DNA of 63,393 nt, from assembly GCA_903878285.1 (NCBI GenBank), contig CAIRHB010000013.1, forward strand, positions 1 through 63,393, given 5' to 3'. This DNA comes from Candidatus Adlerbacteria bacterium. GTDB taxonomy: Bacteria; Patescibacteriota; Minisyncoccia; Phycocordibacterales; SBAW01. This document shows positions 43,501-46,500 of the stretch, in pieces. Position 1 is the first letter of the stretch. Each line of letters begins with the position of its first letter. The notes under the pieces are model-generated. The model did no database searches. It was not told the origin of the DNA and saw only the letters and a program-made list of their open reading frames with translations. A program made the position numbers and the translations under genes.

Positions 43501-46500
43501 GGCAGCACCTGCTTTGACGAGCGCAGTCTCGGTGTCTTCTGCCATCTGCTTAAGATTGAGCTTCTTGCACAAGTCGTACATCGCCTCGGCACCGATACCT
43601 GCCTCGAACATCGCGCCGTACTTGATCACATAGCGGTGATACTTCGGCTCGTCGAGTACCGACCCCACGTAGATCGCGTCGATGTCGCGCTTTGCCTCGA
43701 GGAAGAGCTCCTTCATCTTGTCCTTCGACTTCTCGTCTTGAAGATTTTTCAATTTTGCCTTGTACTCGGTGTCGAGCTCGTGGATGATGCGCTCCTTTTC
43801 TGCCTGGTGCACCTCGGTAACAATGTAGCCCGCGAAGTAGACAACCTTCTCGAGGTCGCTACCGGAGATACCAAGCACCATCGACAAACGCGACGGGATC
43901 GCGCGGAGGAACCACACATGTGCCACCGGCACGGCGAGGTCGACATGGCCCATGCGCTCGCGGCGGACAATCGCGCGGGTGATCTCCACACCGCACTTCT
44001 CGCAGATGATGCCCTTGTAGCGGATGCCGCGATACTTGCCGCAGTAGCACTCGTAGTCGCGCTCTGGCCCGAAGATCTTTTCATCAAAGAGTGAGTTCTT
44101 CTCGGGGCGCTGCGTGCGGTAGTTGATTGTTTCTGGTTTGGTGACTTCGCCATGCGACCACTCGAGAATCTTCTCGGGGCTCGCAGGGCGGATGCGCACT
44201 GCGTCGAAGTCGGATGCGTCAGCACCTGGCGTCTTGCCCGAGCCTGCGCGACCACCTGCTGCAGCACCGTTTCGCAGCAACTCAACATCAAGCGCCAACC
44301 CGCGCAGCGTGTGAAGCAGGACGTTAAACGACGCCGGCGCGTAGTGGTGGCTGATGCGCTCGCCGCGGACGATCGAGTCGAATGCTGCCGAGCGACCTTG
44401 GATGTCGTCAGATTTAATCGTGAGCATCTCGCGAAGCGTGTATGCCGCGCCGTAGCCGAGTAGTGCCCACACTTCCATCTCGCCAAAGCGCTGGCCTCCA
44501 CCCTGTGCCTTACCGCCGAGCGGCTGCTGGGTGATGAGGCTGTATGGCCCGATCGAGCGCATGTGGATCTTATCCTCGACCATGTGGTGCAGTTTGAGGA
44601 TATACATGTAACCGACCGCGATGTCCTGTTCGAACGCCTCGCCGGTACGGCCGTCGTAGAGCTTCATCTTGCCGCTTTCGTTAAAGCCAGCCTTTTTGAG
44701 TTCCTGTCGGATTTCTGCCTCCGTTGCACCTGCAAACGGCGGGCAGATTGCCTGGTAGTTGAGCGTATTTGCTGCGAGGCCGAGGTGCAGCTCGAGAATC
44801 TGCCCAAGGTTCATGCGCGACGGCACGCCGAGCGGAGTCAAGATCACGTCAACCGGACGACCATCCTCCATGTAGGGCATATCCTCCTCGGGGAGAATGC
44901 GTGAGATAACACCCTTGTTGCCGTGACGGCCCGCGAGCTTGTCGCCGACCGACACCGTGCGCAGCTGTGCGATCTCGATGTGGATGCGCTTGATAATGCC
45001 GCTCTCGAGCTGGTGACCCTGCTCGCGCGAAAATACTTTGACGCCAATGATGCGGCCGCGCTTGCCGTTCTCCATGCGCAGTGACGAGTCCTTCACATCG
45101 CGTGCTTTGTCGCCAAAGATAGAACGCAAGAGGCGCTCCTCAGGGGTCAGCTGTGTCTCACCCTTGGGTGTAATCTTACCAACAAGAATGTCGCCAGGGC
45201 GCACCTCGGAGCCGGTGCGGATGATACCGTCCTCGTCGAGGTTGCGCAGCTTTGTTTCAGAGACGTTCGGGATGTCGTGGGTGGTCTCCTCGGGCCCAAG
45301 TTTGGTGTCACGTACGTTGCAGACAAATTCCTCGATATGGATCGATGCAAACTTGGAGTTTTTGACCATGCGCTCGGAGATGATGATTGCGTCTTCGTAG
45401 TTGGCACCGCTCCAGCACATAAATGCGACGAGTGCGTTTTGTCCGAGCGCCAACTGACCCTGGTCGGTTGTTGATGTGTCGGCGAGCAAGTCACCCTTTT
45501 TGACAACCGTACCGACAGAGACTGCCGGACGCTGGTGCAGCGAGGTAAAGCCGTTGGTGCGCACAAAGTTAACGAGCGGGTACGTGTGCTCTTTACCCTT
45601 CTCGTCTTTTATGATGACACGTTTACCGTCTGCCTGCACCACCGTGCCGTCCTCTTTCGCAATCGCAAGACGTCCCGTGTCGCGTGCTGCGCGCTCCTCC
45701 ATACCAGTCGCCACAATCGGCGCCTCGGGAAGCAAACACGGCGTCGCTTGTTTCTGCATGTTCGAACCCATGAGTGCGCGGCTTGCATCGTCGTGCTCGA
45801 GGAACGGGATCATCGTTGTTGCAACCGAGAACGGCTGTGATGCGTCAACGTCAATATGTGTCACCTCTGCACGCACAACACGCATTGGCGCGCCCGCGAC
45901 GCGCACATCAACCACATCGTCGACAATGCGGCCATCGTCACTGATTTTTGTTGCACCGTGCGCAATCGCAAACGTCTCCTCCTCGGCAGCATTAAGATAG
46001 ACGACCTCTTTGGTCACCTTACCGTCAATCACTTTGATGTACGGTGTCTCAATCATGCCAAACTCGTTGAGTCGAGCGAAGGTCGTGAGACGCAGAATAA
46101 GCCCGATGTTTGGGCCTTCAGGCGTTTGGATCGGGCAGAGACGTCCGTAGTGAGACGGGTGCACGTCGCGCACCTCAAAGCCCGCACGCTCGCGGGTGAG
46201 GCCGCCGGGCCCGAGCGCCGAGAGCATGCGCAAGTGTTCGAGCTCTTCGAGCGCGTTGTTCTGCTGCATAAACTGCGACAGCTGGTTGGTGGTGAAGAAC
46301 TCTTTGATGCGCGCCTGGAGCGGGCGCGGGTTAACAAACTGCTGTGGCATCGTCGCCTCGGTGTCGATGGTCGACATGCGGTCCTGGATATTGCGCTTCA
46401 TGTGTGTGAGGCCTACGCGCAGACGCTGCTGGAGCATCTCGCCCACGTAGCGCACACGGCGCGATCCCAAGTGGTCGATATTGTCCTCGACTGCCTCGGG

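Follow-up and report, generated by a model that had tools for sequence, protein, structure and literature searches.

Natural fusions of the two largest RNA polymerase (RNAP) subunits, beta and beta', are described for Helicobacteraceae/Wolinella and Wolbachia (Zakharova et al., 1999; Lane and Darst, 2010, as cited in PMC7483510), and beta and beta' have been reported as one fused polypeptide in Candidatus Adlerbacteria (Protein Sci 2024; PMC11515920). Here, we analyse a fused rpoB-rpoC gene, hereafter rpoBC, on the minus strand of contig CAIRHB010000013.1 from a Candidatus Adlerbacteria bacterium, the whole 63,393-nucleotide (nt) stretch of which is referred to as the window. With a probability of roughly 0.9, this gene is a genuine, lineage-fixed fusion, the product of which would be a single chain of about 250 kDa that docks as an ordinary core enzyme.

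The Adlerbacteria fusion is already known in print, PMC11515920 concerning the same clade and the same fusion as found in the window, and hundreds of such proteins are already present in public databases. In that study the fusion is given one sentence, the protein being split for domain analysis, and the linker and its conserved motif go undescribed, as do the reach of the clade and the way in which the fusion arose; a literature search for rpoB-rpoC fusions under Patescibacteria/Parcubacteria returned nothing, the published statement surfacing only under Adlerbacteria. Compared with the usual Adlerbacteria form, the linker of the window carries G-K-T-P-G-A-D instead of R-K-T-P-G-A-E, and the Ala/Gly-rich stretch which precedes this motif is 3 residues longer than in the commonest form. 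What is added here are the limits of the fused clade, the tether motif with its likely origin in a beta' tail and multiple origins of the fusion in Paceibacteria, all of which are modest increments.

The proteobacterial fusions resemble rpoBC in that a short tether connects the C-terminus of beta, in frame, with the N-terminus of beta', and, as far as the account in PMC7483510 goes, in a presumed obligatory 1:1 synthesis of the subunits. They differ in size, with about 2800-2900 amino acids (aa) including lineage-specific insertions as compared to the minimal 2282 aa of the window protein, and in their independent origin and unrelated linker sequences. The same connection of the beta C-terminus to the beta' N-terminus has been engineered, in a synthetic Escherichia coli beta-beta' fusion (cited in bioRxiv 10.1101/2021.11.05.467461) and in a fused rpoBC plasmid which yields active Mycobacterium tuberculosis RNAP in routine expression (bioRxiv 10.64898/2026.04.06.716786). 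In contrast to the window gene, these active enzymes are laboratory constructs with designed linkers and no evolutionary conservation.

The rpoBC gene and its two modules

According to the open reading frame (ORF) listing, rpoBC occupies 47415 to 40567 of the minus strand, starts with ATG and comprises 2282 codons without interruption. The parts of the gene are as follows.

40567..47415, minus strand: fused beta-beta' gene rpoBC, 2282 codons plus stop (ORF listing, translation, Pfam order, independent assemblies)
44266..47415, minus strand: beta module, aa 1-1050, of minimal architecture (Pfam Rpb2_1 to Rpb2_7; E. coli alignment)
44265-44212, minus strand: linker, aa 1051-1068, 18 residues (codon positions)
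44236..44265, minus strand: variable Ala/Gly-rich linker half, aa 1051-1060, differing in sequence and length among relatives, always in frame
44212..44235, minus strand: conserved linker half, aa 1061-1068, KTPGADAS, a putative former beta' N-terminal tail
40570..44211, minus strand: beta' module, aa 1069-2282 (Pfam Rpb1_1 to Rpb1_5; catalytic and zinc motifs)
40567-40569, minus strand: rpoBC stop codon, adjoining the 3' end of the beta' module

The last beta codon (aa 1050) occupies 44268-44266 and the conserved beta' start DFDAV begins with aa 1069 at 44211. In-frame TGA, TAA or TAG codons are found neither across the ORF nor at the junction (translation; junction read in three frames), so that calling the fusion is independent of the genetic code, and a gene-calling artefact caused by an alternative genetic code is ruled out for rpoBC. 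The original prediction had claimed a single fusion ORF of 2282 codons, which the ORF listing, the translation and the order of the Pfam domains bear out; the junction sequence quoted at that time is exact in the translation, and the gene strand, then unstated, is minus.

Eleven Pfam RNAP domains occur in rpoBC in canonical order, with the full bacterial beta set (Rpb2_1, 2, 3, 45, 6 and 7) at aa 19-1047 and, downstream of it, the full beta' set (Rpb1_1-5) at aa 1069-2164. In the translation, the catalytic loop NADFDGDQMAVH and the N-terminal zinc motif CYCGK...CEKCG of the beta' module are intact, and GDKLAGRHGNKG is present as well. With complete domain sets and catalytic motifs, rpoBC as translated is not a truncated or decaying copy. 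Identity to the E. coli subunits amounts to 51% for beta and to 47-51% across beta and beta', each over the full length. As had been predicted, the beta module lacks the proteobacterial insertions, the alignment leaving out E. coli beta residues 220-331, 938-1037 and 1128-1181; equally, E. coli SI3 (residues 943-1132) is missing from the beta' module. Beta chains in the PDB align to rpoBC up to about aa 1048 and beta' chains from chain residue 3-5 onward, with all of the best 60 PDB sequence matches being separate beta or beta' and none a naturally fused chain spanning the junction.

Extent and recurrence of the fusion

The identical 6849-nt ORF, junction included, is present in two independent ENA assemblies made with different assemblers (ERZ27313262 and ERZ18637425), and the exact protein is carried on 12 contigs. 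In a search of 5.8 billion protein clusters, of which the best 120 matches were looked at, about 88 clusters at 75-100% identity are all either about 2280 aa long or partial but junction-spanning. A separate beta or beta' of full length and similar identity, expected at about 1900-2200 bits and hence listable among the best 120 cluster matches, was not found among them. From the FGEMEVWA motif in beta to ETINYRT in beta', the fused relatives span 113-120 residues, always in frame, and linker lengths differ among clade members by whole codons only. Judged by these comparisons, the fusion is reproducible, kept in relatives and not an error.

One genome per species was scanned by tblastn with a 401-aa junction query, which returned 80 loci (L001-L080). 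The five closest loci, with 85-91% identity over the query, belong to metagenome-assembled genomes named Candidatus Adlerbacteria, and all five species representatives are fused (translation table 11). The next-closest Paceibacteria, with 59-71% identity and including by name Taylorbacteria, Zambryskiibacteria, Nomurabacteria and Giovannonibacteria, possess split rpoB and rpoC with short spacers. More distant loci (L034, L036, L038-L040 and L042, 53-57% identity) are fused again, with a shorter, unrelated linker containing DRKDDF. The linker of the window agrees with the motif of the clade at five of seven positions, with a conservative E-to-D exchange and an unchanged register before x-x-DFDA. 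By sequence, rpoBC is part of the Candidatus Adlerbacteria clade of Paceibacteria (Patescibacteria/Candidate Phyla Radiation (CPR)), from which the split Paceibacteria are excluded. In the comparison with relatives which the original prediction had suggested as a check, the fusion is clade-wide, both in the roughly 88 clusters and in the five species representatives. The rpoB-rpoC fusion is genuine, and in the lineage of the uncultivated Candidatus Adlerbacteria it has become fixed.

In all 80 loci, including those of Bradyrhizobium and other Proteobacteria, rpoB and rpoC are in the same reading frame. A biological meaning of this arrangement was rejected; it is most likely an artefact of the search, in which tblastn alignments that read through a stop score highest and rank first.

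A neighbour-joining (NJ) tree built on concatenated beta and beta' (58 sequences over 2148 columns, 100 bootstrap replicates) places the window in a wholly fused Adlerbacteria clade (bootstrap 100). Its sister assemblage consists of split lineages (bootstrap 100), with fused P0088 nested inside (bootstraps 91 and 100); fused P0089 pairs with split L019 (bootstrap 98), and the second large fused clade of Paceibacteria (L034-L042, P0091-P0113) has a bootstrap of 100. The other fused groups are separated from the Adlerbacteria by well-supported split lineages, and parsimony on this tree indicates at least four independent gains of the fusion within Paceibacteria. The junction sequences of the four groups are mutually unrelated. 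Like the window, the second Paceibacteria clade, the singletons P0088 and P0089, and Candidatus Desantisbacteria, which is also fused (P0115/P0135, with P0135 labelled "Multifunctional fusion protein"), have a single ORF spanning both subunits, but their linkers differ, being for example DRKDDF, KKKKMNSNY or stretches of 30-50 aa. Wolbachia P0119 groups with split alphaproteobacterial genes, far from Paceibacteria. With Wolbachia among the Alphaproteobacteria and Adlerbacteria among split Paceibacteria, the tree argues for convergent fusions and against common descent of the Adlerbacteria fusion with that of Helicobacter or Wolbachia, which leaves the functional analogy unaffected.

Further fused proteins of 2450-3130 aa occur in other lineages, and among proteins clustered at 50% identity, about 19 full-length representatives of >2000 aa match across the junction in one stretch. 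The view of the original prediction that such fusions are otherwise rare is thus overstated, given at least four origins in Paceibacteria and about 19 more fused representatives at 50% clustering. P0118 and its cluster members represent a 3132-aa fused beta-beta' encoded on contigs of 3.5-4.8 Mb, many of them large, apparently complete non-CPR genomes, and apparently not annotated as fused. P0110 (MBS3902910.1, 2310 aa) clusters with the second fused Paceibacteria clade and is labelled 'Anaplasmataceae bacterium' at NCBI, which looks like a taxonomic mislabel, possibly due to its fused rpoBC best matching Wolbachia.

The state of the junction varies within the 90%-identity cluster of P0088, which (with P0121, P0124 and P0127) is related to the loci L008/L014/L016. 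This cluster contains fused members of 2282 and 2296 aa along with split beta (P0121, 1083 aa) and beta' (P0124, 1234 aa). Fused P0127 illustrates how a fresh fusion looks and thereby gives a direct view of the mechanism in a related lineage: ...VELKKKK, with which beta ends, is followed at once by an intact beta' start, MNSNYKNPGAE, which indicates that the tail of beta, the stop and the spacer have been deleted. The mixture of forms reflects either a very recent, possibly polymorphic fusion or else an indel error in the A-rich run.

The linker and the alternatives to a single-chain product

The last nine residues of the linker follow the pattern [RK]-K-T-P-G-A-E-x-x, each motif position being common to 64-76 of the 77 clade members, among which the 6-10 residues preceding the motif vary in sequence and length. 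In a codon alignment of six species, the motif differs only at synonymous third positions (CGC/AAG, ACT/ACC/ACG/ACA, CCA/CCC/CCG/CCT, GGT/GGC/GGA and GAA/GAG). As variation among the six species is synonymous only, the codon pattern argues that the motif is translated and under purifying selection. The free beta' P0124 begins MNSNYKNPGAETDQFEA, which lines up position by position with K-T-P-G-A-E-x-x-D-F-D-A in the linker of Adlerbacteria, and because of this register match we infer that the conserved linker half is the former N-terminal tail of beta'.

In an AlphaFold2 model of aa 960-1440 (42-sequence alignment; mean predicted local distance difference test (pLDDT) 75.7, predicted template modelling score (pTM) 0.74), confident strands are formed by aa 1042-1048 at the beta end and by aa 1072-1077 at the beta' start. 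With a pLDDT of <50, aa 1055-1067, including aa 1055-1060 of the variable half, have no secondary structure in the model, which predicts the linker to be a flexible unstructured tether between the two strands. The tether would consist of a variable Ala/Gly-rich stretch followed by the retained beta' N-terminal tail K-T-P-G-A-[DE], and would tie the last beta strand to the first beta' strand. It would match in approximate length the pair of free tails in unfused enzymes, replacing the tails and adding little; in E. coli, the corresponding last strand of beta is followed by 2 residues and EFDAIKI of beta' is preceded by 15, a sum of 17 as compared to the 18 of the linker. With a tether of similar length to the free tails, both modules should fold and dock as an alpha2-beta-beta'-omega core, and the engineered fusions lend support to a functional single chain. 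The fusion would enforce 1:1 synthesis and intramolecular co-assembly of the two largest subunits. It originated most likely by a small deletion or loss of a stop codon across a very short rpoB-rpoC junction, an event in which stop codon, ribosome-binding site and start codon would have been lost.

The possibility that an indel or a lost stop in one metagenome-assembled contig has joined two separate genes is effectively refuted and has next to no probability. The source organisms of rpoBC are uncultivated and the P0088 lineage has its fused junction within an A-rich run of lysine codons, a place at which homopolymer errors could plausibly occur; on the other hand, the ORF is identical across independent assemblies and 12 contigs, the roughly 88 diverged clusters and the five species representatives are all fused in frame, and the linker motif is conserved through synonymous variation with length variants in whole codons, on which grounds an assembly or frameshift error was rejected. 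More weight, albeit still a low one, is to be given to the idea that the linker is a read-through intergenic spacer, a stop-to-sense mutation having extended translation into an in-frame rpoC, as had been assumed by the original prediction with its 'translated former intergenic spacer'. In many Paceibacteria, rpoB and rpoC share a reading frame and are separated by a spacer of no more than about 10-50 nt, such that one substitution could in principle fuse them, and the Ala/Gly-rich N-terminal linker half of 6-10 aa has no recognisable homologue. The same-frame observation is, however, most likely a ranking artefact of the locus search, and in split relatives the spacer is usually interrupted by at least two in-frame stops. 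The distance from motif to motif is 345-354 nt in fused Adlerbacteria, shorter than in almost all split relatives (348-474 nt), which, together with the match in length to the summed E. coli tails, means that few residues, if any, can stem from a spacer, and the conserved linker half, [RK]KTPGAE, matches the beta' tail in register. An origin of the linker as translated intergenic spacer is therefore not supported; at most, the 6-10 variable residues could derive in this way.

That the gene is fused and separate beta and beta' nevertheless arise, by proteolysis of the tether or by internal initiation near the beta' start, is less likely still. The tether is predicted to be disordered and hence protease-accessible, a GTG codon (V of DFDAV) stands at the beta' start in five of the six species compared, and AGGTGG occurs in the linker DNA of the window. 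AGGTGG is, however, not conserved, the N-terminal linker half being variable, and several clade members have L or I in place of the valine of DFDAV, the M in L004 being unique. Among the fused relatives compared, neither the linker nor the sequence directly behind it contains a conserved in-frame start codon, and a consistent arrangement of Shine-Dalgarno sequence and start was not seen among them; with no conserved internal start, separate translation of beta' from rpoBC appears unlikely. Helicobacter and engineered fusions remain single-chain, which counts against separate products as well.

Some observations weigh against a fixed single-chain fusion with a retained beta' tail and a benefit for assembly. 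Post-translational cleavage of the tether would be compatible with the sequence, the single chain being read from the gene alone. The proposed homology of KTPGAE to a beta' tail is a 6/9 match to one split lineage (P0124), and split relatives outside the P0124 lineage have different beta' tails. The benefit of the fusion is suggested by analogy with Helicobacter, which tolerates splitting of beta-beta'. Fused and split forms within 90% identity in the P0088 lineage suggest that the state may be nearly neutral; the fusion may be advantageous or nearly neutral, with the P0088 polymorphism arguing that near neutrality is possible.

Genomic setting and consequences

The rpoBC gene is located outside the classical rplKAJL-rpoBC-rpsL arrangement, detached from rplKAJL and from rpsL-rpsG. 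Its surroundings contain the following features.

36963-52123, minus strand: gene order rpsP, trmD, 434-aa ORF, glutamine amidotransferase (GATase) gene, rpoBC, gap, dnaG, rpoD
47665..47692, minus strand: promoter-like TTGACA-16-TAGAAT, 11/12 of the sigma-70 consensus, about 250 nt before the ATG (consensus match only)
40541..40563, minus strand: 10-bp hairpin directly after the rpoBC stop, a possible terminator (consensus match only)

Core transcription and priming genes, namely rpoBC, dnaG and rpoD, sit together, and the same gene order is found on L082 and L083, with a dnaG-sized ORF after rpoBC in L001. The putative promoter would imply a long 5' leader, for which no known RNA family matches. 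Between the stop of rpoBC and the start of dnaG (40110-40566), about 460 nt hold no credible gene; ORF143 (40501-40070) was considered as an rpsU-like gene and rejected, since it matches no family and is implausibly rich in Arg and Cys. This gap has no Rfam match at gathering score and may represent either a long leader of dnaG or an RNA not described so far. Throughout the window (1-63393), tRNA genes and Rfam families at gathering threshold are absent. Elsewhere in the window, a 2026-aa ORF (20509-26589, minus strand) with Laminin_G_3, repeated FN3/purple-acid-phosphatase-N-like Ig domains and Big_3 is, by its domain content, probably a giant surface or adhesion protein of a kind common in episymbiotic CPR bacteria, and an SMC_N-family protein (56832-59144, minus strand) has 770 aa as compared to about 1200 aa in canonical SMC.

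With respect to annotation, public records name these fused proteins only "subunit beta'" or "subunit beta", and pipelines which use rpoB and rpoC as separate markers or for estimates of completeness can mishandle fused genes. The minimal, independently evolved single-chain beta-beta' of 2282 aa could be suitable for the heterologous expression of a CPR RNA polymerase. The fusion leaves the understanding of bacterial transcription unchanged; its repeated origins provide a natural comparison for the selective value of tethering the large subunits. It is a doubtful, rather speculative proposition that the beta-beta' fusion represents a recurrent selected solution in ultra-small episymbiotic Patescibacteria in which the retained K-T-P-G-A-E tether is functional. 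If true, the fusion would go beyond a neutral by-product of junction compactness and could offset a reduced help in assembly by omega or chaperones, or a low expression with very few RNAP molecules.

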